Positions 165-30,770 of a DNA stretch of 64,000 nt are shown in pieces. The position numbers were made by a program, and so were the translations under genes. The stretch spans positions 32,001 through 96,000 of the IMG/VR virus record IMGVR_UViG_3300028920_000002. One strand, given 5' to 3'. Position 1 is the first letter of the stretch; every line of letters starts with the position of its first letter. The notes beneath the pieces are model-generated. The model worked only from the letters and a program-made list of their open reading frames with translations, did no database searches and had not been told where the DNA came from. This DNA is from a virus.

Positions 165-2357
165 ATGGAACTGTTCATCCAGCCCGAGACCTACTTGGAG
201 AAGACCGCCGGCGAAGTGGAGCTGCCGGAAGACCCCAACATGTGGCCCCAGGAGGTGCTGCAGGAGCTGTTCAAGCAGGTCCCGTACATCTCGGACTTCC
301 AGCCCCACGTCGTCATGGACAAGGTGGACGCCGAGCAGGGCTATGGTCTCGGGCACGTCGAGATTGCCAACCAGAGCGAGGCGCAGGTCACCGCTGAGCC
401 GGAGATGGCCGAGGCGGCGGGCATCCGCACGGTGCGCATCCCGGTGGTCATCCGAGAGGGCAAGCTCACACCTTTCGACCTGCTCATCAACGACAACGGC
501 AAGATTCTCCCGCTCACCGAATCCCGCATCCGGCAGGCCCTCTTCCGCCCGCAGGCATTCGACGTCACCAGCAAGACGCCGGGCGACCAGAGCATGATTG
601 GGCAGCTCTACCCTCCGTACCGTCAGAACTACGGTTTCGGGCGCACTGGTACTGGCGTAGTGACTGGAACCGGACTCGGGAAGATGGGGTCTGCGCTCGA
701 CGCGTACTTGACTGCGGAGCTCGAGAAGACTGCGCAGAGAGCCCAAGTACCTGAACGACCCAAGTCGGACTTTCAGTTTCATCGGTTGGAGAAGAAAGCT
801 TCCATCCTCGAGTCCATTCTCCCAACGCTCAACCGGACGGACTTCGACAGCTTCTGGGAGAAGGTCAGCAGTGACCACAGCCTTCAGGCGCAGTTCCGTC
901 ACAACGCTGACGCTACGCAGGGGGCGCTCTGTCTGCTGGCCAACCACGAGCCCATCACGCTGGAGAAGACGGCCAGCGCGTTGGCTGAGGTGGTCAAACC
1001 TACTGTCGCTCAGGTCACGAAGACGGTCGATGGCTATCTGGTGAAGACCGCCAGCCACCTCTACTGGAAGCCGCAGACCAGGCTCCTGAACCGCGGGGAG
1101 GTGATTCAGGAGTTCGGTGAGAAGGTGGCTCTGGCGGCGGATGAATCCGGCGGCGTCACGCTGGCCGAGGGTGCCGACGCCGAGGACGCCGAAGGAGCTC
1201 TGGACCAGGAGGAGCCCATCAGCGTTTCGGACTCTGGCCTCTACAAGGTCTACGACGATACCGGCAAGGAGCTGGTGGGCTTCGTCATCCCCAACCTGCT
1301 CGACACCGACGGCACCCCGCTGCCGCTGAGCCTGTTCACCAACGGTTCTCAGACGGCGGTGCAGGACGATATCCAGGGGGTGCCCGCCGGCGACGGCGTG
1401 AATCTGCCCACCGCCCAGCCCGGCGGACGGGGAGCCTTCTTCTCCGTCACCGACGAGGGCAGCGTTCAGGCCACTGTCCCCCTCGTTTTGGGTGGGTCCT
1501 ACGCCACGGGTGACGGTCAGACCGTCCTGAACGGACAGACCTTTGACGGGCGCCCGGTGGAGGTCAGCGTCCAGTCGAACATCCAGACCGTCATGGGCAC
1601 GCCCGAGGGGCGGATGCTGGTGCCGGAGAGCTGGCAGTGGACTCCGATGTCTGATGAGCAGGTCTCCTTGTACGGAGGCGACGTCGGGGAGCAGCCTGAC
1701 GAAGGCGACGACGAGCAGCTGCAGCAGGCTTTCGGCGCCGAGAACGAGGGTGAGGCAGCTCCCCAGCAGGAGGAGCAGGCTGAAGAGAAGCAGAGCTCGG
1801 CCTTCATCTGGGTCCGCTCCGGCGGCCCGGACACCTTCTCCGTCAGCGGTCCGGCGCTCGAGAAGCTGGCCTACAGCGAACGGGAGTCGTTGAGTCTGGA
1901 TGACGCCATGTTCCTCCTGGCGGGCCTTGGTGTGTCACAGGCGTATGGCGTCAAGAAACTGGCGCACGCCTGTTCAGGGGCCAACCCGGAACGCGTGCGG
2001 ATTGGGCGCATCATCAAGACCGCGGCCGAGGTGGATGCCTGGTCCAGGGAGCGCGCACAAGCTCTGCACTCGGTGGTCCCACGGCTCAAGCAGGACCTGG
2101 TGAAGGAGGCCGCGCTCATCCCCAATCCGTCGGCCGTTGACACCGTACTCAGCCTGGGCTTCATCAACCCAGAGAACATCATGACGTTCGTAGGCTACCT
2201 GCCGGACATCGACGGCGCGCAGGGCAAGCTCTGCGAGTTGCTGCTCGCTTCCCGCCTCGGCATGGACGACATCCCAGCTTCGGCACTAGAGCGGGCAGTC
2301 CGCTCCGTCGAAGAGACCATCGAAGGTCTGAAGGTCCTCGCGTTCCAAGGAGGCTGA
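165..2357 (+). CDS. Large head-associated virion protein, KxA-motif rich (730 aa)
   Basis: RBS GAGGAG, strong GC3 bias, about 11 K-x-A/S motifs by eye (EKTA x3, EKKA, VKTA, EKVA, EKQS, EKLA, KKLA, IKTA, VKEA), position in head module. Confidence 0.75.
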   Translation: MELFIQPETYLEKTAGEVELPEDPNMWPQEVLQELFKQVPYISDFQPHVVMDKVDAEQGYGLGHVEIANQSEAQVTAEPEMAEAAGIRTVRIPVVIREGKLTPFDLLINDNGKILPLTESRIRQALFRPQAFDVTSKTPGDQSMIGQLYPPYRQNYGFGRTGTGVVTGTGLGKMGSALDAYLTAELEKTAQRAQVPERPKSDFQFHRLEKKASILESILPTLNRTDFDSFWEKVSSDHSLQAQFRHNADATQGALCLLANHEPITLEKTASALAEVVKPTVAQVTKTVDGYLVKTASHLYWKPQTRLLNRGEVIQEFGEKVALAADESGGVTLAEGADAEDAEGALDQEEPISVSDSGLYKVYDDTGKELVGFVIPNLLDTDGTPLPLSLFTNGSQTAVQDDIQGVPAGDGVNLPTAQPGGRGAFFSVTDEGSVQATVPLVLGGSYATGDGQTVLNGQTFDGRPVEVSVQSNIQTVMGTPEGRMLVPESWQWTPMSDEQVSLYGGDVGEQPDEGDDEQLQQAFGAENEGEAAPQQEEQAEEKQSSAFIWVRSGGPDTFSVSGPALEKLAYSERESLSLDDAMFLLAGLGVSQAYGVKKLAHACSGANPERVRIGRIIKTAAEVDAWSRERAQALHSVVPRLKQDLVKEAALIPNPSAVDTVLSLGFINPENIMTFVGYLPDIDGAQGKLCELLLASRLGMDDIPASALERAVRSVEETIEGLKVLAFQGG

Positions 2358-2358
2358 G

Positions 2359-3870
2359 GTGGCCGAAGGTTTCGGCCGACTCATTGGGGGCGTGAAGGCC
2401 GAGCTTGGCTACGGCCCGGCACTGCCTAAGCCCACGGAGGAGGAGAAGCGTGAGGCTCTGCAGCGCGCGGAGGAAATCAGGCGCACTGTCGGCAAGCGGT
2501 ACAACGTCTCCCCCTATCTGGCTGGGTCGCTAGCCACCGGCTTGAACATTCCTGGGCAGCACGACTTCGACTACGGGGTACGCGTTACCTCCAAGCCGAA
2601 GTTCGACAAGCTGGTCAATCGTTTGCAGCGGGCCGAGGGAGTGAAGACCTCTCCATACAATCAGACTGGTACGGACTACCACGTCTTCACCACCAGTGTT
2701 GGGGGCGAGCCCGTGGACTTGGCTGTCATGTATGGGGACAAGGGCAAGCTGCAGCGGCAGGCGATTCAGCGGGCTCAGAACCTCAGTCAGGACGAGAAGG
2801 ACAAAATCATTGCTGAGAAAGCGCGGCTCTCCAACGTCCTGTTCTTTCAGAAGCAGCGCAAGAAGCGCTTCAAGCGACAGGTAGACGCGCAGCTCGGTCT
2901 ACCGCGCTTCGGTAAAGAGAAGGTGGGACGTGTTGTGACCGACCAAGAATGGAGGCGACTCGCTACTCGCCCTACTGTGTTCGGCCATCGCACGAACAAC
3001 ATCGAGCCCATCATGCAGTCTCAACGACTGTTGAGCGCCGCTGATGCGGCGAAGAGGGGAGCGCTGAAGAGCTACGAGACGGGGACGGGTCGTGGGAGCC
3101 GCGAGCGCTCTGATTTGAGTGAGCGTAGAGGCGAGCGCAAGATGCTCCGCTCAGAGGTCTTCATGAACAAGGGCGGATTGATGCCCCCCAGCGAAGCGTA
3201 TGGACAATACGGCGTGCTCTTCGAGAAGCAGAAGGCCGCGCCCTCGAAGTACCTCAACGCCGTACCTCGAGAGCACACGGCAGAAACGGTGAAGAGCAAG
3301 CTCACTTACGTTGTGCCTGACAAGGAATTCGCGAAGTGGAATCGTAAGTTCCCTGACCGGAAAATCATGCGCGAGTCACACGTGCCGGAGCATATGAGGC
3401 TGCCAGGCAAAGACCGCGGAGAGCTCATCCAGAGAATCCTGACCGGACCCAAGCTCTACGAGAAGAAGGAAGAGGTCAAGATTGGTGGAGCACTGGCCAA
3501 GAAGAAGGGGCTGCGCCGGGTGGGGCAGCTCCTCAGTGGTTCCCGAATGAAGGCGTTGGAGGAGCGGGCTGCTGGTCTGGAGTCCCCATTTCGACGGCGC
3601 GCCCAGCGTGCGCTGGAGCCTGTCCGAAGTAGCGGGATGAAGAAGCGCCGTATAGAGGAGAGCCTCGGGCGCGTGAAGTCCAGAGGTAGGGTTGAATCCG
3701 CGCTGAAGGCCGAGCAGGAAGCAGTACAAAAGGCGAGAAAGACCACCAAGACTGTTGGGGGTGTGGCTGCTGGACTTGGGGCCGCGGCGCTTGGTGCTGG
3801 GGCGTTCAGCAAAGCCATGAAAGAGCCGGACTACGCGGCGATTGCGGCCGAGCAGCGCGCAAAGGCTTGA
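2359..3870 (+). CDS. Cargo polyprotein: Pol-beta-type nucleotidyltransferase + ADP-ribosyltransferase-fold (AbiGi/DarT-like) domain + C-terminal Gly/Ala membrane helix
   Basis: GS-x11-DFD (aa 56-71) and third Asp in VDLAV (aa 120); then H-x-T...I..S..LLS, VF, YGQYGVLF, E305; C-terminal GGVAAGLGAAALGAGAF; GTG start. Confidence 0.65.
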   Translation: MAEGFGRLIGGVKAELGYGPALPKPTEEEKREALQRAEEIRRTVGKRYNVSPYLAGSLATGLNIPGQHDFDYGVRVTSKPKFDKLVNRLQRAEGVKTSPYNQTGTDYHVFTTSVGGEPVDLAVMYGDKGKLQRQAIQRAQNLSQDEKDKIIAEKARLSNVLFFQKQRKKRFKRQVDAQLGLPRFGKEKVGRVVTDQEWRRLATRPTVFGHRTNNIEPIMQSQRLLSAADAAKRGALKSYETGTGRGSRERSDLSERRGERKMLRSEVFMNKGGLMPPSEAYGQYGVLFEKQKAAPSKYLNAVPREHTAETVKSKLTYVVPDKEFAKWNRKFPDRKIMRESHVPEHMRLPGKDRGELIQRILTGPKLYEKKEEVKIGGALAKKKGLRRVGQLLSGSRMKALEERAAGLESPFRRRAQRALEPVRSSGMKKRRIEESLGRVKSRGRVESALKAEQEAVQKARKTTKTVGGVAAGLGAAALGAGAFSKAMKEPDYAAIAAEQRAKA

Positions 3871-3903
3871 CCCACAAGAAGAAGTCGGCCACTTTCAACG
3901 GGG

Positions 3904-8080: not shown

Positions 8081-9736
8081 ATGCACGACCTTCCATCCAT
8101 CACCCTTCTGCAGCAGGCTCACGCAGTCCCCAAGACCGGAGAAGAACTCGAAGTTCTCGGGAAGACCGCGGCTTGTAGGTATGAATCGGGTGAGTGCTCC
8201 AGTCTCAGCGATGCTGTGGTGGAGACCGTCAAACACGCCGGCCTCTCCCCGGAGCAGGTGAAACGGGTCACCGAGTTCACCAACCAGGCGGCGTACCTCA
8301 ACGAGTTCCGCAAGCTGGGGAGCAACCACAAGTACATCGAGTTCGACGGCGGCCCGGCCGACCCCGGCGCTGTGTTGAAGGACCTCAACGATGGGAGTGG
8401 CGGCACCGTCTTCGACCGTGGCGTCCTCGACTACGCCTCCCAGCCGTCGACTCCTGTGAAGACCGCATCCGTGAAGCGCAACATGGCTCGGCTGGAGAAG
8501 GTGGCTCAGCGCTTCATGAGCGATGCGGACTTGGCACAGTTCGCTGGCATGCAGCCGATGGGCATGGAGAATTGGCGGGACAACCCCATGTATCAGAACC
8601 AGCGGAAGCTGCAGCAGGTGGCGATGCTCAGTGCCATGACCGGCCGGCAGCCCATCAAGGTCGCTGCTGCTGAAGAGAAGCCGTTGCCCGGTAACGGGCT
8701 CGGTGAGCGAGGGAGGGGCGCTCCAGGACCGGGTTCTGGGTGTGACCAGCCGGGACGTCGGCTTGGGCAGAGGGGCGAGGTCCCCCGTAAGTTTAGGCAC
8801 CGCGCTGCGGATTTGTCGGCGGTGCAGCTCGCTGGTGAGCGGAAGCAGTCGTCGGCCGAGCTCGACTTCAACCCGGCCGAAGCCGCCTTCGAGGACATGT
8901 TCCGAGCCGACGGGCCGGAGACTGAGCCGTACCACGAGCCCATGCAGGACACGCTCGACATGAGGGAGAAGCTCGCCGGCGCGCGGGACCACCTGACGGG
9001 TGAGCTCGGAGGGCTCGAGCTCGCCTTCGGCGAGGTCCTCGAGGACATGTACCAGCAGGTCAAGCAGGCGGCGCTGCAGGGCGCGACGCTCGGCCAGGTA
9101 ATTCGTGCCTGGAACGACGTGGTCCCCGGGCCGGAGTACGTGAAGACCGCCTTCGCCCACATCGGCCCGCGCCTGCATGAGGAGGGAGTCTTCCCCTCCC
9201 TCGACTCCATCGGCGAGTCGCTCACCAAGACTGCGGCCACTGGGCTGGTAAACCACAGTCACCCTTTGGTCCAGTCCATGGCCGCGTATATCACCGTGCT
9301 CGATAAGCTGGCTCATGTGCGCGCAGCACGGGATGAGCTGGCTCAGGAGTTCGAGCGCATCGATTGGTTCGCCAAGCGTGCAGCTCCGACCGCTCAAGGG
9401 CTCAACATCATGAAGCGGATGGCCCAGAGTGGAGGGCTCATCCCAAAAGTGACGGGCGCTGCCAGGCGAGCGGGTGAAGCTGTAGCTCCTCGGGTGCAGC
9501 AGGTGGGGGAGGCCCTCCTAGGCGCCGGCTCTCCAGCCGCTGCGCAGATGGGGCAACTCGCTGGCGGCGCCGTCAAGTACACCCCGCATGCCGTTGCCGG
9601 ATTGGCCGGCCTCGAGGCGTACCAGCGCGCCAAGTACAACCCGGCCTTCCAGACGGCGAAGAACGCCCTGCTCGGCCGCATTCCCTACACCCACCCCTGG
9701 CAAGTTCGGCAGTACCAGCTGCAGATGGGAGCATGA
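8081..9736 (+). CDS. Internal head protein, KxA-motif rich (551 aa)
   Basis: KTA x4, KVA x2, KQS, KLA x2, KRA motifs; C-terminal Gly/Ala-rich amphipathic segment; RBS AGAGG. Confidence 0.7.
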   Translation: MHDLPSITLLQQAHAVPKTGEELEVLGKTAACRYESGECSSLSDAVVETVKHAGLSPEQVKRVTEFTNQAAYLNEFRKLGSNHKYIEFDGGPADPGAVLKDLNDGSGGTVFDRGVLDYASQPSTPVKTASVKRNMARLEKVAQRFMSDADLAQFAGMQPMGMENWRDNPMYQNQRKLQQVAMLSAMTGRQPIKVAAAEEKPLPGNGLGERGRGAPGPGSGCDQPGRRLGQRGEVPRKFRHRAADLSAVQLAGERKQSSAELDFNPAEAAFEDMFRADGPETEPYHEPMQDTLDMREKLAGARDHLTGELGGLELAFGEVLEDMYQQVKQAALQGATLGQVIRAWNDVVPGPEYVKTAFAHIGPRLHEEGVFPSLDSIGESLTKTAATGLVNHSHPLVQSMAAYITVLDKLAHVRAARDELAQEFERIDWFAKRAAPTAQGLNIMKRMAQSGGLIPKVTGAARRAGEAVAPRVQQVGEALLGAGSPAAAQMGQLAGGAVKYTPHAVAGLAGLEAYQRAKYNPAFQTAKNALLGRIPYTHPWQVRQYQLQMGA

Positions 9737-9737: not shown

Positions 9738-10259
9738 ATGAGCCCGCTCGACGAGTACATGGAGCTACGCAAGGAGGCGGCCACCCAGATGCTTCTACCG
9801 GGCTTCAGGCGTGGGGCCGGTACGCTGATGAGGGAGTTCGGCCACTCTGCCGTCAGCCCCCAGGCTGTCGGTGAAATGGGCAGGGCCTTCGGCATCGGTG
9901 CGGTGGGTGCCGCCGGCGCGGCGATGTTCGGCGGAGCTGTGTCTGGTGTGCGCAAGCTCATGGGTGCAGCGAGCGCCAAGCGCGACTTCCGGGACATGAT
10001 GGACACCCACCCCGACCTGCACGACGTCCAGCAGGAGAACCCGCGCTTCTTCAACCAGGCGTACAAGTCGCTCAGGCGAATGAACCCGACCTACGCCAAG
10101 GACCCGATGATTGCCGGCAGCTACATGAAGAAGATGATGGCCTCCCCGGACACCGCGGGTTTGACGCTGGCACAGAGCTTCCGGCAGCCACAAGAGCACG
10201 GACAGCAGCCGCTCGGACTGCGCGTGGGCAAGGATTCGCCCGTCACCTTCAACGTCTGA
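9738..10259 (+). CDS. Small head-associated membrane-helix protein
   Basis: Start reassigned to ATG 9738, 1 nt after the previous stop; leader ends in RKEA; glycine zipper GIGAVGAAGAAMFGGAVSG. Confidence 0.75.
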   Translation: MSPLDEYMELRKEAATQMLLPGFRRGAGTLMREFGHSAVSPQAVGEMGRAFGIGAVGAAGAAMFGGAVSGVRKLMGAASAKRDFRDMMDTHPDLHDVQQENPRFFNQAYKSLRRMNPTYAKDPMIAGSYMKKMMASPDTAGLTLAQSFRQPQEHGQQPLGLRVGKDSPVTFNV

Positions 10260-10260: not shown

Positions 10261-11961
10261 ATGCTCAAGGTCAGCACCTTCTTCGCCGAGAGTGACCACG
10301 GCCTCGCCGCGGTACCGCTCTTCGGCAAGGCTGACGCAGCCTTTGAGAAGACGGCAGCGGCGGGATTGCTGCCGGAGGTGATGGCCTACATCGAAGGACT
10401 GAGGCCCCGGCCAGGAGCTCAGTACGTTCTCGTCAACGCTATGGGCGCCGGCGAGTACTACGGCTCAAACATCAACGGCGACTACTTCGAGGAGAGCGGC
10501 CTCATCCACAAGCCCGATGGCTGGAGCGGCAACCCGCTGACCGACAAGCTGTTGGCGAAGAACTGGCACTACGGATTCCCCACCTTCTACAACGCTCATC
10601 CGTACGCCCATCACCGCAACAAGGACCCCAGCCGGGCCTACGGTGAGGTCGAACTCGCAGTGTGGAACGACCACATGAAGCGGGTTGAACTCGTAGTCCG
10701 TGTGGACCTGGACAAGTGCAACAAGTTCGGAGGGGTCAGCGTCTGGGACCGGCTCAAAGAAGGTCAGTTCCCTGACGTCAGCATGGGCTCTCGTGTGCCG
10801 TTCGACCTGAGCTCCGTCAATACAGACTGGGAGTTGTACCGTAAGGCACTGGCGGGCTTCCGCCCAGGTAAACATAAGCATCCTGGCTTGGCGGTGGTGG
10901 AATTCCACAAGAAGCTCAAGGCCGAAAACGGTGTGGGCATCAAGGGTGTCTCCATCACCCGCAATGACTACGACGAGTGGACGAAGAATCACATGAACCG
11001 CATCCTGCCCGATGGCAGGAAGGTCTTCGTCTACAACCCGTTCCCCCGCTTCTTCGACATCAGCTTCGTCTTCATCGGCGCGGACAAGACCGCCAAGGTG
11101 ATGGTGTTCATCATCCGCTGTGGAGGCCCGAAGTACGTCTCCTCTGCCGATGCTGCAGAGAAGCTTGGGTACGATGAAGTAGCTACAGAGCGGCTCGAGC
11201 GCGCTGCTTCGGAAGGCGTGAAGACCGCCAGCATTGCTGATGAACTTTTGAAGAGTGCGTTCCTCGGCAAGAAGAGTGAGATTGAGAAGGAGGTCGTGCC
11301 ATCGCAGTTCGCGAGCAAGGCCATTCCGGTCCTGACCAAGTGCGAGAAGGACCTACCGGAGGAGGCGGTCAAGGCGCTGGCCTCCGTGCCCGAGAAGAAT
11401 GCGCTCTCTACCCTCAGCGGAATGGGGATTGTGCTCCGGCCTCGGGAGTTTCAGCGCATCACCCTCATTCGTGAGGGCAAGGGACCGTTGGCGGACCAGC
11501 TCAGTGAGGCGGACCAGCTCTTTCCAAAGAGCAAGGACAGCTTGCCGATGGCCCTTTCTGCAGGCGATTTCATGCCTGCTCTGGCCCGGCTGCTGATGCC
11601 CTTGATGATGGAGCGTTCAGCGCTGGGCCCGTACGTCGAGAAGCGTGTTGTAGTCGTTGATTCTGACAAGAAACCCACCAAAGAAACGGCCACTTCCCAT
11701 CCAGACGAAAGTCTCCGTAAGATGAGTGCTGCGTACAACGGGTACCGGCAGAGTTTGATGGATACAGTGGCGCACACCCAAGAGCTCATCGAGTCAGCAG
11801 CGCTGCCTGAAGACGTCGAGTTGCGAAAGCTCGCTGCCGCACCCGCTGAAGAAGTCTTCACCCAGTTGGCGGTCAACTACTTGGAAGACGCTTTCATGGA
11901 TGAAGCACCGTTTGCCGTTACGGAAAACACGGTGGTACAACCCAAGGACCTCAGGCGATAG
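10261..11961 (+). CDS. Prohead (capsid maturation) serine protease, HK97/assemblin fold
   Basis: Candidate His in AHHRNKD, YGEV...VELVV, candidate Ser nucleophile in VSMG, FFDISFVFIGAD; lies between terminase and capsid genes. Confidence 0.82.
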   Translation: MLKVSTFFAESDHGLAAVPLFGKADAAFEKTAAAGLLPEVMAYIEGLRPRPGAQYVLVNAMGAGEYYGSNINGDYFEESGLIHKPDGWSGNPLTDKLLAKNWHYGFPTFYNAHPYAHHRNKDPSRAYGEVELAVWNDHMKRVELVVRVDLDKCNKFGGVSVWDRLKEGQFPDVSMGSRVPFDLSSVNTDWELYRKALAGFRPGKHKHPGLAVVEFHKKLKAENGVGIKGVSITRNDYDEWTKNHMNRILPDGRKVFVYNPFPRFFDISFVFIGADKTAKVMVFIIRCGGPKYVSSADAAEKLGYDEVATERLERAASEGVKTASIADELLKSAFLGKKSEIEKEVVPSQFASKAIPVLTKCEKDLPEEAVKALASVPEKNALSTLSGMGIVLRPREFQRITLIREGKGPLADQLSEADQLFPKSKDSLPMALSAGDFMPALARLLMPLMMERSALGPYVEKRVVVVDSDKKPTKETATSHPDESLRKMSAAYNGYRQSLMDTVAHTQELIESAALPEDVELRKLAAAPAEEVFTQLAVNYLEDAFMDEAPFAVTENTVVQPKDLRR

Positions 11962-12034: not shown

Positions 12035-13027
12035 ATGAACGAGTGGCTCGCGCAGATGTACGGCACCAACACGGACCCCCAGGTCGTCGAAGAAGAGCAG
12101 GCCAAGCTGGCGCAGGTGGAACTGTTCGCCAAGCTCGCCTCCGATTCCGGCGTCGACCTCGACGAGTACACGGATGAGCAAATCCAGGAGCTCTTCAACG
12201 AGGTCATGCTCAAGGAAGCTCAGGAGAACGAGCCCGGCGAGGGCGCTGCTCACGAGAAGTCCGAGTCCAAGGCCAAGGAAGAGGGCGAGGACGAGGGCGA
12301 GGCCGCGACCAAAGAGAAGGCCAAGGAGGAGTTCGCCGAGAAGAAGGCGTTCTCCGAGAAGTTCGCCGAGGCCGACTTCATGGGACGCGTGATGGCCCAC
12401 GCCTTCACTCAGGAGAAGGACGCCATCGAGAAGACCGCCAAGGAGGACAAGAAGCCTCTGAGCGAGCGCGTTGGTGAGGCAGCTGGCCGCAACCTGGAGA
12501 AGGGCACGGCGGCCGTCGGTGGTGGCTACGGCGGCGCAGTGGGTGGTGTCGGTGGTGCGGTTGCGGCGCGCAAGGCCGGCGAGAAGATTGTCGGCAAGCA
12601 CTGGGTCCGCTCCCAGCAGGGAGGCAAGCTCGGCCGGCTCGGCAAGGCCATCGGCGGCAAGAAGGGCCAGATTGCCGGCGCCGCTCTCGGTGCGGCAGGC
12701 GGTGCGGCAGCCGGCGGGCTCGCCGGTCGCGGCTACGGTCGGTTCGCCAAGGGAATGACCCGAGGTGCGGCCGAGGAGAAGAAGGCGTCGGCCACTCCGA
12801 ACCTCGACCTCATCGCGGCAGAGCACGCCGTGAAGATTGCCGAAGCGGCGGAGTACGACACCGATGAGGCCATCGAGCGCCTCAACGCGGTGCTGACCCT
12901 CGGCGTCGAGGACAGTGAGAAGCTGGCCTACGCGCCCGACGAGGAGACGGCCGTTCACATCCGCGGGCTCGAGCTGCTCGAGTCTGCCGGCTACCCGGTC
13001 AACTGGGAGGAAGTCTTCGGCGAGTAG
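12035..13027 (+). CDS. Scaffold-like/internal head protein with glycine-zipper insert
   Basis: Start at ATG 12035 with RBS ACGGAGA; acidic helical ends, 8 KxA motifs, Gly-zipper block bounded by EKTA and EKKA. Confidence 0.72.
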   Translation: MNEWLAQMYGTNTDPQVVEEEQAKLAQVELFAKLASDSGVDLDEYTDEQIQELFNEVMLKEAQENEPGEGAAHEKSESKAKEEGEDEGEAATKEKAKEEFAEKKAFSEKFAEADFMGRVMAHAFTQEKDAIEKTAKEDKKPLSERVGEAAGRNLEKGTAAVGGGYGGAVGGVGGAVAARKAGEKIVGKHWVRSQQGGKLGRLGKAIGGKKGQIAGAALGAAGGAAAGGLAGRGYGRFAKGMTRGAAEEKKASATPNLDLIAAEHAVKIAEAAEYDTDEAIERLNAVLTLGVEDSEKLAYAPDEETAVHIRGLELLESAGYPVNWEEVFGE

Positions 13028-15576: not shown

Positions 15577-16704
15577 ATGAGCAGCGTCGTTTCACCGCGA
15601 ATGCTGAACGACCTCTTCGCGCAGAAGCTGAACACGCAGGAGGGCAAGGAAAAGATTGCCCAGTACGGCGGCAGCTACATCCGCGACCGGCTACGCGAGG
15701 TCAGCTTCGCACGCAAGATTCTTCCGCCGGAGCAGGTCACGCGCAACGACTGCCAGCGGTCCACGAACCACGACACCCTCGTGAAAATCGTGGACATCGA
15801 GCCGCAGTCCCGCGCGATGGCCATCACGTTCCGGGGGCAGCCCTCCGCCCGCTTCATCCGCGCGCCCCGCGCGGAGTGCGCGTTCTTCACCATCAGCTCG
15901 GAAATCTTCCAGAAGACCGAGCAGGAACTGCTGGCCTACGAGATGCCCATCACCAAGGTCATCGAGGAGAACAGCGTGAAGGACATCCAGGAAATCGAGG
16001 ACCGCGAGTTCCTGCTGCACATCGAAGCGGCCGTGCAAGCCCTGCAGACCGAGGCCAATGGCGGGACGCCGACGGCGCTCAACAACACGGCCATCGGCAC
16101 GACGGTCGAGTTCAGCGTCCGCAAGGGCGAGCTGGCTCGGGCGTCCGGCGTGGGCGACGACGCCGTGGTGCGGCCCATCCAGCGGGTGGACATCGTCAAC
16201 CTGTTCAAGATGCTGGACGGGAATCGGCTGCGCGCCGAGCGCATGCTGATGACCGAGGTCGACTACGACGACATCCTTCAGTGGACCGTCGAGGACCAGG
16301 GCGACCGCATCCAGTCGGAGACCACGGTCGACGGCTACAAGTACAACACGCTGCTCGGGCGTGCGTACATCCGCACCATCAAGACGGACCTGCTTCGACC
16401 GGGCAACGTCTACATCTTCACCGCTCCGCAGTTCTTCGGCCGGTTCTTCATCCTGAACCAGACCAAGTTCTACATCGACAAGGTCGCCAACCTCATCTCC
16501 TGGCAAGCCTGGGAGGACATCGGCATGCTGGTGGCCAACATCGCGTCGGTGCGGAAGATGGAGCTGTACTCGGCGGACGCCAACCCGTCCACCGACGCCG
16601 ACAGCCTCCTCGCCAACTTCATTCCGAAGGAGGAGGAAGAACTGGGAGCGGTCAACAACCGCGTCGACTCGGGACTCAAGTTCCCGCAGGTCGTCCAGTT
16701 CTAG
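15577..16704 (+). CDS. Major capsid protein (HK97 fold)
   Basis: RBS AAGGAG, extreme codon bias, 375 aa, IRDRLREVSFARKILPP N-arm pattern, followed by a terminator. Confidence 0.85.
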   Translation: MSSVVSPRMLNDLFAQKLNTQEGKEKIAQYGGSYIRDRLREVSFARKILPPEQVTRNDCQRSTNHDTLVKIVDIEPQSRAMAITFRGQPSARFIRAPRAECAFFTISSEIFQKTEQELLAYEMPITKVIEENSVKDIQEIEDREFLLHIEAAVQALQTEANGGTPTALNNTAIGTTVEFSVRKGELARASGVGDDAVVRPIQRVDIVNLFKMLDGNRLRAERMLMTEVDYDDILQWTVEDQGDRIQSETTVDGYKYNTLLGRAYIRTIKTDLLRPGNVYIFTAPQFFGRFFILNQTKFYIDKVANLISWQAWEDIGMLVANIASVRKMELYSADANPSTDADSLLANFIPKEEEELGAVNNRVDSGLKFPQVVQF

Positions 16705-17840: not shown

Positions 17841-18302
17841 ATGGCGGCTCTCTACACGCGCAAGTTCGGCAAGCTCGAGGACATGCAGCTCTTTCTGCAG
17901 GGCGGCATTCGCGGCGGCAAGAAGGTCGTTCAGCTCGACGGTAAGGTCTTTGGTCTGCACGGCAAGACGCTCGTGTTCAACACCCCGACTGGCACGGTCA
18001 CGTTCGCTGATGCTACCAACGCCGGCCTTACCTACAAGCAAATCGTCGACGAGATTGCCGCTGACGTGACCACTGTCGTGGGTAGATTCGACGGTGATGG
18101 TCGCCTCACCATCTTGGACGCCGACCTCAGCGGCCCCATCGACCTCGACGTTACCGGCACGGCCAACAAAGCTCTAGGCTTCAGTACGGTCAATGACACA
18201 GTCGGAACGCTCTACGCCGCGCCGGATGGTTCGGCTCCACGACTCGTCACCATGGGAGGCAACTCTCAGGGTGATGGCTACCACGTTGTGACGGAGGAGT
18301 GA
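17841..18302 (+). CDS. Virion protein with the sheath-type surface module
   Basis: TLVF...TVTFAD...LTYKQIVDEI...GRLTI...ANKALGF resembles the inserts in the sheath. Confidence 0.65.
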   Translation: MAALYTRKFGKLEDMQLFLQGGIRGGKKVVQLDGKVFGLHGKTLVFNTPTGTVTFADATNAGLTYKQIVDEIAADVTTVVGRFDGDGRLTILDADLSGPIDLDVTGTANKALGFSTVNDTVGTLYAAPDGSAPRLVTMGGNSQGDGYHVVTEE

Positions 18303-20236
18303 TGTCACGCATCGAAGACGCATTGAGACGGGACATCCCTCTGCATGTGGCGGCAGAGTACTTCTCCATGGTGAAGCAGGCTCGTGAGCTCACGATGAAG
18401 GGACGCGAGCAAATCAAGGAGAAGAACTTCGCCATTCCGAAGGGTGATGGGCCAGGAGATACTGGCAAGTACCCCATCCACGATGAGCGCCATGCGAAGA
18501 CCGCGCTCACCTATGTGGAGCAGCACGGCACGCCGGCGGAGAAGGCCAAGGTCTACTCGGCAGTGGCGAAGAAGTACCCAGGTCTCAGCCGCGAATCGAG
18601 CGTTCCTGCACTGCGAGAGAAGGCTCAGGAGAAGAAGGCCGCGGAGGAGAAGAAGGCGCCTATCAAGACGATGCACCCCGGAATCTCGGCGGCCATCGGC
18701 GCGGGTGGTGGTCAGGGAGTTCCTGACCTTGCGGCTGCTGCCTATCAGAAGATGAAGGGCAAGTCGGTTCGTGGAGCCGGCGTCAAGTCCCGCCTCGTAG
18801 GTGGCGCCATCGGTGCAGCTACGTTGGGAGCTGCCGGGTTGGCTGCACGTCGGCAGGAGAAGAAGCATCAGAAGCAGGAGAAGACGGCGGCCGATGAGTC
18901 CGACTCCGAACTGCGAGAGAAGGGACGACAGCGCGCTGTCTCCAGCATGGCCGCCGAGTTCGAGCGGGAGAAGTCCCGTCGGGCAGAGCGCGCCGGCGGC
19001 GCCCTGGGCGCCCTGGGTGGAGCTGCAGCAGGGGCGTTGGCTGGTAAGAAGCTCGTGGGTGGCAAGCTCGGGACGCTTGGTGGGGCGGCTCTCGGTTTGA
19101 CCACCGGGCGGCAGGCCGGCAAGGAGGTCGGCACCGAGGTCGACATCAAGCGGCACGAGAAGACCGCGGCGCTCAGATTCGATGAGGCGGCAGAGGCGCA
19201 GCTGCGCCCCATCGAGGCCGACACGCGTAAGGGTATGGGCAAGCTCTTCCGAGATGCTGGCATCGTGCGTGGGGCCGTACCCTCCGCTCTGGTCAGCGGG
19301 CTGGGAAGCGCTGCCCTCACCGCCGGAATGGGTGGTGGACTACGCGGGGCAGGCCGCGCCGCCGGCGCTGGCGCCCTCGGCGGGCTCGTCTTGGGCGGTC
19401 TCGGCGGTGCTCTGGCCGGGCAGGCCAAGGGGCAGGAGGCAGCCGAGCGCCTCAACGAGATGCGCCGCAACGCCGTCCTGGGGCGGGCCATCCAACAGCA
19501 GGCAGCTGCGCCTCCGCCGGAGGCAGTTCAGGAGCCGGTGAAGGCCGCTGCTGCCCGCATGAAGTTCAAGCTGGCCGCCACCAAGCTGGCCGACGACGGT
19601 GCCATGGGCCAGGAGGCCCCCATGACCTCCCCGACCGCGCCTGAGCTGCAGCCCCAGAACTATCTGGCGGCCGAGCAGATTGGCCAGCAGGCCCAGGACG
19701 CGACCGAGATGGCCTACTACAAGGAGCAGGCCCGTCAGGCTCAGCAGCAGGCGGCCATGGCCTCTCAGCAGGCCGAGGCGACGGCCGCTGCCTCCGCCGA
19801 GGGCCAGGCGCAGGCCCAGCAGCTCCAGCAGCAGGCGATGATGGCTCAGGATGAGGCCACCAAGCAGACCCAGGTGGCCGCCCAGCTACGCATCGCCCTG
19901 CAGGCCCAGCGGGCCAAGCTCATGGACGTGGTGAGCCAAGACCCGACTGAGGCCCTGGCCGCCGAGATTGGGCAGGGGCCGGCGCCGGCGGTGCCGCCGG
20001 GGGCCGAGGAGGCGGGGGCCGCCGCGGGCGCTCCACCGCCGCCCGAGGCCGGTATGCCCCAGCCTCCGCCTTCGGCCGCCGCCGCCAAGGAGATGGAGGA
20101 GGCCGCCCGCGCCCAGAACGACGCCGCCGAGCAGACCGCTCAGGCCGAGGGAGCCGCCCAGGGTGGCCCCGCTGCCGCCCCACCGCCCGGAGGCCCCGCC
20201 GGGCCGCCCGGCGCCGCCCCACCTGCAGGACCGTAG
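18302..20236 (+). CDS. Modular internal head polyprotein (KYPI-type small domain, three glycine zippers, Gln/Ala coiled coil, Pro-rich tail)
   Basis: Modules separated by KQA, EKKA x2, EKTA x2, KAA, KLA x2; GKYPIHDERHAKTALTY...KKYP resembles DUF6582. Confidence 0.72.
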   Translation: MSRIEDALRRDIPLHVAAEYFSMVKQARELTMKGREQIKEKNFAIPKGDGPGDTGKYPIHDERHAKTALTYVEQHGTPAEKAKVYSAVAKKYPGLSRESSVPALREKAQEKKAAEEKKAPIKTMHPGISAAIGAGGGQGVPDLAAAAYQKMKGKSVRGAGVKSRLVGGAIGAATLGAAGLAARRQEKKHQKQEKTAADESDSELREKGRQRAVSSMAAEFEREKSRRAERAGGALGALGGAAAGALAGKKLVGGKLGTLGGAALGLTTGRQAGKEVGTEVDIKRHEKTAALRFDEAAEAQLRPIEADTRKGMGKLFRDAGIVRGAVPSALVSGLGSAALTAGMGGGLRGAGRAAGAGALGGLVLGGLGGALAGQAKGQEAAERLNEMRRNAVLGRAIQQQAAAPPPEAVQEPVKAAAARMKFKLAATKLADDGAMGQEAPMTSPTAPELQPQNYLAAEQIGQQAQDATEMAYYKEQARQAQQQAAMASQQAEATAAASAEGQAQAQQLQQQAMMAQDEATKQTQVAAQLRIALQAQRAKLMDVVSQDPTEALAAEIGQGPAPAVPPGAEEAGAAAGAPPPPEAGMPQPPPSAAAAKEMEEAARAQNDAAEQTAQAEGAAQGGPAAAPPPGGPAGPPGAAPPAGP

Positions 20237-20249: not shown

Positions 20250-21956
20250 ATGTTGGACCAATTCCTCGAGGTCGCCTACGAGGCACAGCAGAAGAAGGAA
20301 GCTCAGGCCGAGATGGTCGAGGGCTTCAAGAACCTCCCCGAGCGGGAGCTGTTCAAGCTGGCCACCGGTCAGACCAAGCTCGCCATGTACGACGGGGACG
20401 ACTGGCTCGAGAAGTACAAGGACACGGAGCTCTACCCCGAGGCCCTACAGCTCGAGCAGCAGTGCCTGCAGGCCAAGATTCAGCAGGAGCAGAAGCGCTT
20501 GGCCGAGCAGGAGGAGCGGGACTCCAAGCGCGAGGAGCAAGATGAGGAGTGGCGCGCGATGGACGCCATCCGCCTGAAGAAGCGCATCCTCGACCTCAAG
20601 CTCAATCAGGCAGAGCTCGCAGCTCTCGGCTCAGAAGGCGGAGAGGCCGGCGAGGAAGAGGAGTCTGAGGAGGAAGAGGCCGAAGAGGAGGCCGAGGAGC
20701 CTGAGGCTGAAGAGGGCGAGGAAGAAGCCGAGGCCGACAACGCCGCAGTGGCAGCTGATGAGAAGGCTGCTTCAGACATGAAGACTGCAGTGTCTATTGA
20801 TTGGGTGCGTCGCGGCGCTAGGAGTGGTGCCAAGCAAAGGACTCTGAAGGGGGAGGGTGAGAAGCTAGTTCAGTCCATCCGCAAAGCTCGAGCGCCGTCG
20901 CCCAAGAGGCAGGCGGCTAGCAAGGGTCTAGCTGAAGGCATGGTAGAGGCTGCCCGAACCAAGAAGGCGTCAGCGGCTCTCACGAAGGTCGCTCAGCCTC
21001 CGGCGGCGCAATCCATGAACCCCATCAAGGCTCGGCGGGTTGTCCAGCCTCAGCTGGAGGACGTGGCTCTCGACATGGACCTGCCCGAAACCTACACGCC
21101 ACAGGACGTAGAGGCCGGCGGTGCGCTGCTCGGTGAGAACATCGCAGCTCAGCGGGGAAAGCTCCAAGAGCAGGCTCAGTACGCCCAAGAGCATCCGGTG
21201 ATGAACAAGCTGAAGGGCGCGGTGCCCGGCGCTGTGATTGGCGGGGTGGGCGGTGGCCTAATCGGTGCAAGTACGGGAGGTACGGGCAAGCAGATGTTGG
21301 CTCGGGGAGCCATCGGTGCTGGCCTCGGCGCGCTCGGCATGGGAGGAATCACCGCTGCCGCCACTCCCGGCGCCGCGAAGCGTCAGGAGACGGCGGGTGA
21401 GTACGAGGCTGCTGAGCAGGCGCTCACGCCAGAGCTGCGGCAGGCCCTGGTAGAGCGTGAGCTCAAGGATTGGGGAGCTGAGCAGGCGCACAACCGGGCT
21501 CTTGCTTTGGCAGAGGCTCGAGCACCTCGTACGAACATCTCGCAGACGACGCGCAACGTCATGCGTCCGCCGTACGCTGCGGAGGATGAGGACGAAGGGG
21601 ACTACCGGTATGCGTCCGCTCAGCTCAAGCTCGCGGCGGCGAAGATTCGCATGCGCCAAGAGATGGAGAAGGAGGCGTGGGGCCCGGTGCTGGCGGCGAT
21701 GGGCAAGGGCCTGCAGGGCATGGGGCAGTTCGCTGCCAAATCCGGCCGTCAACTCGGTGGTGCCATCAGCCGTGGCGCCAAGGCAGGTACGGTAGCGCCG
21801 GTAGGCCGCACCCTGGGTAGGCAGGCGCAGGCTGGAATGATGCGCGCAGGCCAGTGGGCGGCGAAGAATCCCAAGGCTGCCCTAGGTATTGCTGGCGCCG
21901 GCGCGCTGGGCGTTGGTGGTCTGGGGTACATGGCAGGCCGCGGCTCCAACCAGTAG
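20250..21956 (+). CDS. Modular internal head polyprotein (coiled coil, acidic tract, glycine zippers)
   Basis: RBS AGGAG; KLA x3, KTA, KKA, KVA, KEA motifs; two Gly-zipper segments. Confidence 0.72.
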   Translation: MLDQFLEVAYEAQQKKEAQAEMVEGFKNLPERELFKLATGQTKLAMYDGDDWLEKYKDTELYPEALQLEQQCLQAKIQQEQKRLAEQEERDSKREEQDEEWRAMDAIRLKKRILDLKLNQAELAALGSEGGEAGEEEESEEEEAEEEAEEPEAEEGEEEAEADNAAVAADEKAASDMKTAVSIDWVRRGARSGAKQRTLKGEGEKLVQSIRKARAPSPKRQAASKGLAEGMVEAARTKKASAALTKVAQPPAAQSMNPIKARRVVQPQLEDVALDMDLPETYTPQDVEAGGALLGENIAAQRGKLQEQAQYAQEHPVMNKLKGAVPGAVIGGVGGGLIGASTGGTGKQMLARGAIGAGLGALGMGGITAAATPGAAKRQETAGEYEAAEQALTPELRQALVERELKDWGAEQAHNRALALAEARAPRTNISQTTRNVMRPPYAAEDEDEGDYRYASAQLKLAAAKIRMRQEMEKEAWGPVLAAMGKGLQGMGQFAAKSGRQLGGAISRGAKAGTVAPVGRTLGRQAQAGMMRAGQWAAKNPKAALGIAGAGALGVGGLGYMAGRGSNQ

Positions 21957-21969
21957 GAGATGCATTTGA

Positions 21970-22860
21970 GTGCCCTGCCTGAAGGTCATCAACATCAAGG
22001 TTCGGTCTCTGTCGGTCGAGTACAACGAGGTCTCTTGGGAACTCGAGCCGACCAGCGAAGACGCCCTTGACTACACCTTCGAGGTGTTGAGGTCCGAAGG
22101 ACCTGAGGGACCTTTTGCGCCAGTTGCTCCTCCATTCGACGACCAGTACATCTTCGTCGACAACATCATCAAGAGCGCGAATCGACACCGTCAGTACTTC
22201 TACAAGGTGCGAATCACCAGCAAAATGTCTGGTGATTCCGAGGAGTTCGGACCTGCATCTCTCGGCGCAGATGCAGAGCTGGTGACGATTGAACTGCGCA
22301 CTCACATGAACCTCTTGTTCAAGGAGTACGCGGGTCGGTTGTGCTGGCTGCTGCCGGTGCGCACCTTCGGGCAGCGCTGCACGTGCTTCAACGAGACGCT
22401 GCAGCGTCGCACGCGTTCTGGCTGCCGTACCTGCTACGACACCGGCTTCGTCCGTGGGTACATGCACCCCATCGAGTTCTGGGCGCAGTTCGACCCCAGC
22501 CCCAAGGCAGAGCAGGAGACCAGCCTCGGTAAGCTCGAGCAGAGCAACACCACCCTACGCTTCGGCTATTGGCCACCGGCCAAGCCTGGCGACCTCATCA
22601 TCGAGAGCGAGAATCGACGGTGGAGAGTGGTGCAGGTCAGCTCGACGCAGCACAATCGAAGCGTGGTCCATCAGGAAGTCCAGGTCCACGAGGTTCCCAA
22701 GAGCGACATCGAGTACCTCATTGAGCTGCAGCTCGATAAGGCGCTGCGCGACATCACGAGCTCGCCCCCACGCAACTTCACCAACCCACACAACCTCGAA
22801 GCTTTCGAGGACGAGCACATCCCAGCCATCTACGACCTCTACTCCGGGTGCAGCCGATGA
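21970..22860 (+). CDS. Neck/head-closure protein with Ig-like N-terminus and Cys4 Zn module
   Basis: GQRCTC...GCRTCYDTGFVRGY; PGDLIIE...RWRV beta-barrel-type C-terminus. Confidence 0.62.
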   Translation: MPCLKVINIKVRSLSVEYNEVSWELEPTSEDALDYTFEVLRSEGPEGPFAPVAPPFDDQYIFVDNIIKSANRHRQYFYKVRITSKMSGDSEEFGPASLGADAELVTIELRTHMNLLFKEYAGRLCWLLPVRTFGQRCTCFNETLQRRTRSGCRTCYDTGFVRGYMHPIEFWAQFDPSPKAEQETSLGKLEQSNTTLRFGYWPPAKPGDLIIESENRRWRVVQVSSTQHNRSVVHQEVQVHEVPKSDIEYLIELQLDKALRDITSSPPRNFTNPHNLEAFEDEHIPAIYDLYSGCSR

Positions 22861-23228
22861 CTGCGTCAGTTCAGTACAGCGCTATGGCTGATGAGCTCAC
22901 CAAGATAGCTCAGCAGCCACAGGATGCAGCATCGAGTCCGCTTGAGGAGCAGAAACTTCCTCCGCACCCGGCACTCACCGCTGGTAAGGGAGCTCTGGGC
23001 TTCGGCGCCGGTCTGGGAGCTGGCTACCTGGGAGCGAAGGGGCTCGACCTGGCCATGGGTGGCCCAGGCAAACTGGCACCATGGGGGCTCAAGGCGGCGC
23101 CTGTACTCACCGGTCTTGGCGGACTGGCCTACATGCACTCTCAGGGCGTCACGCTCGACAAGATGCGCGAGGACGCTGCTGTGCGCCGGCGCATGAAGGA
23201 GGCTCAGCGTGGTCGCGTCAATTCCTGA
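22857..23228 (+). CDS. Small membrane-helix protein with DELxKIA leader
   Basis: ATGA overlap; AMADELTKIA then two Gly-rich hydrophobic segments. Confidence 0.7.
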   Translation: MTASVQYSAMADELTKIAQQPQDAASSPLEEQKLPPHPALTAGKGALGFGAGLGAGYLGAKGLDLAMGGPGKLAPWGLKAAPVLTGLGGLAYMHSQGVTLDKMREDAAVRRRMKEAQRGRVNS

Positions 23229-27330: not shown

Positions 27331-27339
27331 GGCCCCCCG

Positions 27340-27726
27340 ATGTTGGACCTCGTCACCACCCAGGCGCTCCGCGATGAGCTCGTGAAGATTGCCAACGTCA
27401 AGGCGTTGGCGATTGGCAAGCGACTCGCGAAGCGGCCTCTCCCGCCCAGCGTCCGAGGGCTGAAGCCAAAGGCCGAGGCCCTCAAGAAGGTGGACTTCAG
27501 CATCGACCCGAAGCAGATGGCGTCCTGGGCGGGGAAGACCTCCACGGCGTCGGTCAAGTTGTCGGCCAAGCTGCCTCCCCAAGCGAAGGCCAGCTTGGAA
27601 GCCCTCGCCACACGGCTGGCCAAGAGCGAGAAGAAGGTACCTCAGAAGCTCGTCATGAAGAGCCTCGGCGGAGGCGGTGGCCTCATCAGTGGCAGGGGCA
27701 AGGCTGCCGTCATGGGCCTGAAGTAG
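27340..27726 (+). CDS. Basic small protein with DELxKIA leader, between sheath and tube
   Basis: ALRDELVKIA leader; Lys-rich remainder. Confidence 0.65.
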   Translation: MLDLVTTQALRDELVKIANVKALAIGKRLAKRPLPPSVRGLKPKAEALKKVDFSIDPKQMASWAGKTSTASVKLSAKLPPQAKASLEALATRLAKSEKKVPQKLVMKSLGGGGGLISGRGKAAVMGLK

Positions 27727-27749
27727 AATACTCGTAGAAGGAGAAGGAC

Positions 27750-28511: not shown

Positions 28512-28523
28512 TAGGAGGTCCTC

Positions 28524-28931: not shown

Positions 28932-28942
28932 CCGGAGGCTAC

Positions 28943-29317: not shown

Positions 29318-29327
29318 GGGGGTTCTC

Positions 29328-29591: not shown

Positions 29592-30153
29592 GGGGACCGT
29601 CAGCCAAGAGGCGCAGGTCATCCGCCGCAAAGACCTGACGGACCTCGCCGACACGTTCAAGCAGGCGTTGTGCCCGGTCCAGAACCTTGTGGGGTTGGTG
29701 GGCGACCAGAACGTTTTGGTCAAAGAGACCAACAGACAGGTCAAGGACACCAGCCACAAGCAGAAGTGGCAGAGTGTGTGGCTCATCGCGCTGACCATTG
29801 GCTTCATAGCTGTGGCGGTAGCGCAGACACGTACTAGCAGTGCCCAAGATGTTACTGCCAAGAGCCAGAAGCAGCTTGTCGAGAGCGGCGCTCAGGTTCA
29901 GAAGGACTTGTCTGATGTCACTGTCGAGCTGCGCGGTCTAGTCGCACTTGCGAAGAAGACCGGGCAGCAGGTGGAGGACATCAAGGAGAACAAGGAAACC
30001 GAGCCCGAAGTTCAGCTGGTGGCTGAGACCGACCCGGTGAAGGCCCGCCGAGCACCGGTGAAGGTGCGTATTCTTCCTCCGAAGAAGAAGGGGGCTGCGC
30101 CTCCGCCGCAGTCGGCGGTAGAATTACCCATTCCCAGCAAGCACGTGAAGTGA
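29566..30153 (+). CDS. Single-TM coiled-coil protein (spanin-like candidate)
   Basis: TM SVWLIALTIGFIAVAVA, long coiled coil, Pro-rich C-terminus. Confidence 0.5.
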   Translation: MSQEKQQNEGTVSQEAQVIRRKDLTDLADTFKQALCPVQNLVGLVGDQNVLVKETNRQVKDTSHKQKWQSVWLIALTIGFIAVAVAQTRTSSAQDVTAKSQKQLVESGAQVQKDLSDVTVELRGLVALAKKTGQQVEDIKENKETEPEVQLVAETDPVKARRAPVKVRILPPKKKGAAPPPQSAVELPIPSKHVK

Positions 30154-30770
30154 TGGAAAGCCCCAGCCCCGAGCTGATGCACGCATACGGTACCGACGAA
30201 TTCTACGTCGACAACCTGGAGAAGCGTGCGGCTCTGCCGATACTCGCTCGAATGGCTGCGGGTGCCGGTTTCCTCGGCCTGGTGGCTCATCAGAGACGGC
30301 ACGAGGAGCGTCTGCGTACTCAGGCTGCCATCCTGAATGAGATGTTCCGCCAGGAGGAGGCGGAGCGCATGGCGGCCACCATCCAGTCGTTTCAGCATCC
30401 AGGAGACAGAATGATGGCTGGCATCTATCCGCTCGACCAGGGCATGGAGCGCTTGGCGTCGGTGGCCGCACACATCGGTCGAGGAATGGCACACCAAGAG
30501 CTAGAAAAAGAAGCCGGCATAGGTGGCGCGGCGCTGAGTGCCCTCGGCAAGGGGCTGAGCCGGGCCAAAGGAGCCGTAGGCAGCGCCACCAAGATTGGGT
30601 GGAAGGGCAAGCTTCTTGGACTGGGTGCCCTTGGCGGAGTTGGATACCTCGGGTACAAGGGCCTGCAGGCGGGCAAGGACTACATGATGCAGCCCACTTC
30701 CGGTGGCCGTTGGGGTACGGGGCAGCAGCTCAGGACGCGTGTCAATCAGTGGGGGCAGCCTACCTACTGA
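30150..30770 (+). CDS. KxA-motif membrane-helix protein
   Basis: NLEKRA and ELEKEA, each followed by a Gly/Ala-rich hydrophobic segment. Confidence 0.7.
   Translation: MMESPSPELMHAYGTDEFYVDNLEKRAALPILARMAAGAGFLGLVAHQRRHEERLRTQAAILNEMFRQEEAERMAATIQSFQHPGDRMMAGIYPLDQGMERLASVAAHIGRGMAHQELEKEAGIGGAALSALGKGLSRAKGAVGSATKIGWKGKLLGLGALGGVGYLGYKGLQAGKDYMMQPTSGGRWGTGQQLRTRVNQWGQPTY

Follow-up and report, generated by a model that had tools for sequence, protein, structure and literature searches.

HK97 gp4-type proteases cut after Lys, and the herpesvirus assemblin site is V/L-x-A followed by Ser, with the cut between Ala and Ser. In the literature reached, the phage head proteases that act on many substrates and have had their sites mapped (T4, phiKZ, 201phi2-1, and SPN3US) all cut after Glu. 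T4 gp21 and SPN3US gp245 trim themselves (PMC9958956, PMC5694885). In the sites of SPN3US gp245 the P3 and P1 residues are fixed, P2 is free, and Ser is preferred at P1', and about 80% of the head proteins of this phage remain uncut (PMC10052503). Here we describe a 64-kb stretch of DNA (the window), bases 32,001-96,000 of the complete 186.7-kb phage genome IMGVR_UViG_3300028920_000002, which has terminal repeats and 60.5% GC. It contains the terminase (5527), the major capsid protein (15577), the sheath (24157), and a predicted prohead protease (10261), and its head region is rich in the tripeptide Lys-x-Ala (K-x-A). K-x-A is a real, conserved, non-compositional motif, concentrated in scaffold-like and cargo-like head proteins, and it is most likely the site at which the prohead protease cuts, whichever bond is cut. 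An earlier reading of the same DNA (the original prediction) held that this enzyme processes the head proteome by a code not yet described. The process would be prohead proteolysis of the T4/phiKZ type, with multi-site head processing and targeting leaders already known from T4 and phiKZ-like phages, and only the specificity appears new. We found no literature description of a K-x-A specificity for a phage capsid protease, some key protease papers being outside the reach of the search.

In all 29 plus-strand genes of 165-30770, K-x-A ranked first among 1,600 gapped residue pairs (103 vs 64.2 expected), with neither the genes nor the motif chosen beforehand. The same test placed K-x-A first in the head modules of Salmonella phage Arash (44 vs 19.7), Vibrio phage D69 (50 vs 20.7), and phage G (35 vs 15.8), and R-x-A first in Gordonia phage Stormageddon; the phage G and Stormageddon gene sets were picked by position, with some prior knowledge of their counts. 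As a positive control, the test was run on T4 gp67, gp68, gp21, gp22, and the gp23 propeptide, where LxE and IxE, the known gp21 sites, took ranks 1 and 2. K-S reached rank 3 in the HK97 control. No x-x-E pair, the Glu motif of the T4 and phiKZ types, was among the top eight pairs of the window head region. K-x-A was flat in minus-strand genes (50 vs 47) and in tail and baseplate genes, and it was not enriched in the portal.

A scoring matrix trained on distant homologues only found 28 sites in the plus-strand genes of the window, compared with 2.3 expected. For a second late cluster beyond the window the figures were 8 vs 1.4, and for minus-strand genes 0 vs 1.8. The scarcity of the motif in the sheath and tube, offered as evidence by the original prediction, was rejected as a control. 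The sheath has 1.7% Lys (2 K-x-A vs 1.5 expected) and the tube none, so both lack the motif because Lys is scarce or absent; Lys-rich proteins and minus-strand genes are the valid negative controls. The tail tube (window:27750-28511, 253 amino acids (aa)) has zero Lys against a genome average of 5.4%, and several baseplate and tail proteins, like the sheath, contain very little Lys, for example 2 Lys in 643 aa at genome position 174666.

The thirteen genes listed by the original prediction all lie at the coordinates it gave, and all contain K-x-A. In sum they have 90 copies, where a local 20-residue shuffle leads one to expect 51.7; the highest value among 2,000 shuffles was 78. The excess is carried by six of them (165, 8081, 12035, 13047, 14537, and 22857). 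Four more (10261, 9738, 27340, and 30150) have a leader or one or few strong or conserved sites, while 18302 and 20250 are unclear and 2359 is depleted. The claimed 7-13 copies in several genes were correct for 7-12, but none reaches 13. The phrase 'across the head proteome' was too wide, as the portal is not enriched, the capsid protein has one conserved site in a helix, and several listed genes have only a leader site or stand at chance level. Its picture of proteins diced into dozens of fragments was likewise too strong, given the large uncut share of head proteins in SPN3US.

An artefact of composition or helix periodicity in Lys/Ala-rich helical proteins would account for 18302, 27340, and 2359, which are at or below chance, and for the purely compositional sheath and tube contrast. 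For the six enriched genes this explanation is largely refuted. Their enrichment survives the local shuffle, and their KA, KxxA, AxK, and RxA counts are much lower than K-x-A. The middle residue is most often Thr (4.4-fold), which forms helices poorly, and the signal is present across genomes of about 30% to 61% GC. A DNA repeat as the source was rejected, since 57 sites use 34 different 9-mers. We consider the artefact very improbable.

The consensus in 73 scaffold-like proteins, taken from the window and related IMG/VR loci (some of them near-duplicates), is hydrophobic-E-K-(T/L/E/V)-A-(S/A/E/G)-(A/V), with a median spacing of 27 residues. The residue two before the Lys is hydrophobic (L 2.3-fold, M 2.7-fold, V 2.0-fold). 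Ser (25%, 3.5-fold) or Ala (19%) follows the motif in homologous scaffolds, as the original prediction had noted. Of its alternatives to Ala at the third position, Gly is accepted: one conserved protease site reads K-x-G in 15 cases and K-x-A in 78. Ser was rejected as a general choice for this position (0.56- to 0.78-fold). That the motif ends a helix is partly true, since 14537 has four sites inside a predicted 58-residue helix. Several sites are fixed among homologues, such as K30 of the protease, K33 of 12035 (17/17), and K140 and K328 of 8081 (18/19).

The protease gene and its predicted functional residues are as follows.

10261..11961, plus strand: predicted prohead (head-maturation) serine protease, 566 aa, from fold, conserved triad, and homology; propeptide 1-32, assemblin/gp21-fold catalytic domain about 40-288, flexible K-x-A-rich linker about 289-345, helical C-terminal domain
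10348..10356, plus strand: K30-T-A32, predicted propeptide-removing self-cleavage site, K-x-A in 71/73 aligned homologues and at 19/19 IMG/VR loci
10612..10614, plus strand: His118, predicted catalytic His, kept in 18/18 aligned family proteases
10780..10782, plus strand: Ser174 (VSMG), predicted nucleophile, invariant in 78 homologues
11056..11058, plus strand: Asp266 (FFDIS), predicted to be the third catalytic residue; every family member has Asp or Glu here
11083..11085, plus strand: Asp275, speculatively the S3-pocket residue that pairs with the motif Lys, from covariation with motif type
11221..11229, plus strand: K321-T-A323, site of predicted self-cleavage after the catalytic domain, in a linker with a predicted local distance difference test (pLDDT) value below 50; score 3.0

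The AlphaFold2 model of the product had a pLDDT of 84. Model residues 40-288 matched the proteases of varicella-zoster virus (VZV; Z 9.4), T4 (gp21; Z 9.2), and human cytomegalovirus (Z 6.8), with the best unrelated structure at 4.9. Superposition on T4 gp21 gave a root-mean-square deviation of 2.7 over 130 residues. Herpes proteases also topped the Foldseek list, not significantly. Alignment of the protease family with T4 gp21 and HK97 gp4 by hhalign was not significant; in the weak T4 match, Ser174 is in register with T4 Ser140. None of the Pfam protease families (S77, T4 gp21; S78, HK97 gp4) was matched by the 78 homologues at E<=0.1, and searches of Pfam, PHROG, and PDB by sequence assigned neither the protease nor the scaffold proteins to a family. 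The fold, the ordered His-Ser-Asp triad, and the location in the head module place 10261 in all probability in the assemblin/prohead protease superfamily (clan SH), which bears out the kinship to assemblin and T4 gp21 proposed earlier. Proteolysis of head proteins by this enzyme is predicted.

The protease is single copy in the genome and lies between the terminase and capsid genes; the gene order is the same in Arash and phage G. Its family holds 2,223 clusters at 50% identity. 10261 has a homologue in phage G gp19 (E 2e-26), for which the term head maturation protease is used in a proteomics paper that is self-contradictory on the detection of gp19 (PMC12484599), and further ones in the annotated head maturation proteases of PaBG, RSL1, and Erwinia phages. 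By count 10261 is not enriched (6 K-x-A vs 4.5), and three of its sites are high-scoring. K-x-A/G stands directly after the catalytic domain in 93/134 homologues. The sites thus flank the catalytic domain, which is the layout expected of a protease that trims itself.

Inteins with LAGLIDADG nucleases, one to three per protein, are present in many homologues of this protease (P0001, P0003, P0005, P0015, P0051). They stand ahead of the N-x-N-G-D motif, ahead of the catalytic His, or immediately behind S-M-G. In P0002 an inorganic pyrophosphatase domain follows the protease domain. Mycobacterium phage Cali gp93 (L038:19887-23747) is recorded as 'tape measure', likely a misannotation, as its N-terminal part is homologous to the 10261 protease and the rest is a long scaffold-like region with 14 K-x-A.

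Compared with T4 gp21, the locus shares the fold, the triad, a gene beside scaffold and capsid genes, a propeptide ahead of the catalytic domain, many sites in scaffolds, and short N-terminal leaders on small proteins (cf. the capsid-targeting sequence). It differs in the motif (K-x-A instead of (L/I)-x-E), in the lack of a Pfam S77 match, in an extra 280-residue C-terminal part, and in a capsid protein without an obvious removable domain; processing here is predicted. Like phiKZ gp175 and SPN3US gp245 (A-x-E, S-x-E), the enzyme would have fixed P3 and P1, free P2, Ser at P1', and self-trimming. The difference is Ala instead of Glu at P1, and sites throughout the proteins instead of mainly in N-terminal propeptides. 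Arash also resembles these phages in its virion RNA polymerase and many internal proteins (PMC10585845).

Herpes assemblin is the best structural match (VZV). It shares with 10261 a predicted P1 Ala and P1' Ser/Ala and a protease joined to a C-terminal part, whose release is predicted here. Its P3 is hydrophobic, whereas Lys is expected here; its third catalytic residue is His instead of Asp/Glu, and it has few sites compared with the dozens of candidates in this phage. HK97 gp4-type enzymes belong to the same clan, and the motifs N/D-x-N/D-G-D, F-x-x-H, S-x-G, and E/D-x-S line up, but 10261 has no Pfam S78 match and HK97 has K-S pairs, not K-x-A. The head-maturation proteases of phage G (gp19), cluster C mycobacteriophages, PaBG, RSL1, and Erwinia/Dickeya jumbo phages are direct sequence homologues of 10261, with a first motif residue that varies by lineage (K, R/K, A/S, V). 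In the literature reached, we found no cleavage specificity for any of these annotated proteases.

The sister lineages bear on the position of the cut. In the scaffolds of PaBG, HRDY3, and Erwinia phages, which are rich in A-T-A-S and S-x-S, ATA (19 vs 2.2 expected) and TAS (10 vs 1.4) are enriched. The RSL1, Motura, and BcepSauron scaffolds are enriched in VxA (40 vs 19) and also rich in A-S. The x-A-S/A core is therefore kept, whereas Arg, Ala, or Val stands in place of Lys; this speaks for a cut after Ala. Such a cut fits the SPN3US gp245 pattern (fixed P3 and P1, Ser at P1') and the herpes A/S cut. We consider it probable that 10261 recognises hydrophobic-E-K-(T/L/V/E)-A-(S/A/G/E) and cuts after Ala, with Lys at P3, Ala at P1, and a small P1' residue. 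A herpes-like preference for Ala and then Ser/Ala is suggested by the motif shape and this lineage comparison. Asp275 is a speculative candidate for the Lys-binding residue: it is Asp in every Lys/Arg-motif lineage, aromatic in Ala/Val-motif lineages, and Asp/Glu in 134/135 close homologues, a covariation that comes from one independent change on the tree.

The original prediction placed the cut after Ala, which is the best-supported position, and overlooked a cut by the same protease after Lys (hydrophobic-E-K, then T-A-S), as in HK97-type enzymes, with Ala as a P2' determinant. The hydrophobic residue two before Lys would then be P3, a position that is usually hydrophobic in the sites of T4, HK97, and herpes proteases. 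Lys and Arg interchange in actinophages, and K-S came third in the HK97 control. Asp74 (N-x-N-G-D) aligns by motif with HK97 Asp41 and T4 Arg55, a position which we take to line S1; it would suit a P1 Lys and counts against a cut after Ala. As proof of a Lys pocket Asp74 was rejected, as it is kept in PaBG, HRDY3, and Erwinia phages, whose scaffold motifs have no basic residue. Moreover, the family-wide conserved part is x-A-S/A and not Lys, and a cut after Lys would leave a bulky, variable P1' (T/L/V/E), whereas the residue after Ala is small. A cut after Lys is therefore unlikely.

In a wider set of jumbo phages (L040, L042, L043, L047-L054; PaBG, Erwinia, RSL1, HRDY3, Motura, BcepSauron, and others), the scaffolds are rich in A-T-A-S, S-x-S, or V-x-A-S/A, which are probably the matching protease sites. 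The capsid propeptides of these phages share a G-E-x-N-A-S-like motif resembling the herpes maturation site.

Multi-site scaffold/core proteins form the first predicted substrate class (class I), together with the gene at genome position 13053 outside the window.

165..2357, plus strand: 730-aa internal head protein, many sites; 10 K-x-A, 9 high-scoring
8081..9736, plus strand: scaffold/core-like protein, 12 K-x-A, lineage-specific basic Gly-rich tail behind K432-R-A; Arash gp220 orthologue (E 1e-15)
12035..13027, plus strand: acidic scaffold-like protein with a basic Gly-rich insert (residues 136-251, net +14, 27% Gly)
13047..14528, plus strand: low-complexity scaffold/core-like protein, start 13047 or 13326; 12 K-x-A vs 5.6, p=0.003
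14537..14923, plus strand: 128-aa helical scaffold-like protein, 7 K-x-A vs 1.8; helix residues 3-60

8081 (12 vs 3.8 expected) and 165 (10 vs 2.8) were clearly enriched, as were 13047, 14537, and 22857. In 8081 five sites are kept in 13-18 of 19 homologues, with a conservation of 0.69 for the motif Lys and 0.17 for other Lys. The 165 product is a probable orthologue of Arash virion protein gp218, from a weak top match (E 0.013) and gene order. The ESM Atlas gave no usable match for 165 or 8081. Enrichment was weaker in 12035 (10 vs 5.6, p=0.03), where K33 and K109 (16/17 homologues) are conserved. K133-T-A and K249-K-A mark the two borders of its 116-residue insert; the homologues of 12035 have a different insert or none, yet keep a site at the joint. 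Four sites of 13047 are kept in 3/3 homologues.

The predicted class II consists of small proteins with a short leader ending in D-E-L-x-K-x-A: 22857, 27340, 30150, and four genes outside the window, with 9738 similar.

9738..10259, plus strand: small protein, N-terminal leader ending K12-E-A; Arash gp221 orthologue (E 6e-9), site kept in 9/16 homologues
22857..23228, plus strand: small protein, leader D-E-L-T-K-I-A and four further sites; 5 vs 1.3, p=0.004
27340..27726, plus strand: small basic protein, leader D-E-L-V-K-I-A, from the leader list
30150..30770, plus strand: small protein, leader D-N-L-E-K-R-A, likely start 30177; internal E-L-E-K-E-A ahead of a Gly-rich basic tail

Neither 9738 nor 27340 nor 30150 is enriched by count; each has one leader site, and 30150 also the internal one. 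The seven leaders of this type are helix-like and shared by unrelated small proteins. K-x-A occurs in the first 32 residues of 27/61 late genes vs 10.5 expected (elsewhere 24 vs 22.8). A shared short leader ending in a predicted protease site, as in T4 capsid targeting, is thus found here, and prohead loading by this leader is putative.

These leaders, the early sites, and the sites inside predicted helices would also suit an uncleaved signal for docking or capsid targeting, with the capsid protein, the scaffold, or the protease C-terminal domain as its binding partner, and K-x-A-rich proteins are still detected in Arash virion preparations. Such a signal would not be expected to lie on either side of the protease domain and exactly at the borders of swappable inserts, or to recur about every 27 residues in scaffolds at drifting positions, and the same pair test recovers true T4 cleavage motifs. 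Targeting and cutting can also coexist, as in the T4 capsid-targeting sequence. We judge docking without cleavage improbable.

The other listed genes and the capsid gene are given below.

2359..3870, plus strand: basic 503-aa protein, K-x-A depleted (1 vs 5.4); two K-x-G (residues 188, 374) could be weak sites
15577..16704, plus strand: major capsid protein, phage G gp27-like; PHROG 2522, PDB 6WKK match from residue 12
18302..20236, plus strand: modular Ala/Gly-rich protein, 10 vs 8.6, chance level; few EKTA-type sites between modules, one high-scoring
20250..21956, plus strand: modular acidic/basic protein, 11 vs 7.1, p=0.08, borderline; no site above the score threshold

The capsid protein has a K26-I-A site kept in 13/13 homologues, which is not among the high-scoring sites and lies in an N-arm helix. 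This helix aligns to the start of phage G gp27, the only PDB relative of the capsid protein, which is itself without K-x-A. K26-I-A is probably uncut and the capsid protein left whole. The placement of this site and the lack of enrichment in the portal indicate that the shell is probably not a main substrate.

Several observations weigh against cleavage at K-x-A, which is predicted from sequence and structure. Conservation in homologous genomes, which the original prediction had named as a check, held for the fixed sites, while many single sites drift or are lineage-specific. In Arash virion proteomics, motif density and peptide recovery showed no trend (rho -0.11, p=0.47). Recovery was low for gp220 (0.30) and gp225 (0.15) and not low for gp223 (0.69) and gp242 (1.0), and the published coverage of 80-100% includes values that look unreliable or implausible. 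This data set reported no semi-tryptic settings and contains non-virion enzymes. On the side of processing, in PaBG, which has a homologous protease, the virion capsid protein is about 20% lighter and five proteins run as multiple bands (PMC7412058). Candidate small-residue sites in the PaBG capsid protein would remove 15-21%, so that PaBG may offer indirect evidence of processing, by analogy with a distant relative. Nothing on cleavage appears in the Myrna and phage G tail papers.

If K-x-A is cut by 10261, the prohead would be assembled first and the protease would then act. It would remove its own propeptide (K30-T-A) and C-terminal part (K321/K331) by predicted cuts after residues 32 and 323/333, and chop the scaffold/core proteins (8081, 12035, 13047, 14537, and parts of 165) into fragments that can leave. 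By clipping the short D-E-L-x-K-x-A leaders and the module joints, it would leave basic Gly-rich cargo and enzymes in the head. Only some K-x-A tripeptides need be cut. The scheme parallels, by analogy, T4 gp21 acting on gp22, gp67, gp68, and internal proteins.

Tentatively, a large and mostly uncultured myophage clade (the 2,223 protease clusters, including Arash and phage G) may possess an Ala-specific assemblin-like protease with a lineage-switchable P3 (Lys, Arg, Ala, Val), in which K-x-A sites serve as insertion points for swappable basic peptides and enzymes that are loaded and then cut free. If true, this would be an Ala-cutting phage enzyme with herpesvirus-like specificity, a natural P3 series for learning how this fold reads substrates, and a load-and-cut cargo system readable from sequence alone. 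In phage G, Arash, and many uncultured phages, the motif serves to predict internal head and cargo genes that are not annotated, together with the ends of the mature products. Arash and phage G are cultured and have existing virion mass spectra, so the motif is directly testable.

The closest cultured relatives of the window genome are Arash and Vibrio phages D69/D148/D181. The portal, RNA polymerase subunits, sigma factor, helicase, sheath, and tube are common to Arash and this genome. The two RNA polymerase subunits of Arash, gp206 and gp216, belong to its most abundant virion proteins. Both are matched by one 2,151-aa protein (G000:C1:23816-30271) and are thus fused here; the fusion has no K-x-A enrichment (17 vs 14 expected). 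The homologue of Arash virion sigma factor gp10 (G000:C1:103130-103963) starts with M-L-K-T-A, a high-scoring site. A 1,255-aa polyprotein (G000:C1:169453-173220) has an Arash gp217-like helicase at its end and K-x-A clusters at residues 387-392, 623, and 773-786, with a total below chance (8 vs 12.3). A second head cluster outside the window (G000:C1:12543-18599) contains the K-x-A-rich genes 12543 and 13053, the leader genes 13962 and 14815, and the portal at 16542. ARAGORN called a possibly spurious tRNA-Pro on the minus strand (window:30042-30118), antisense within gene 29566.

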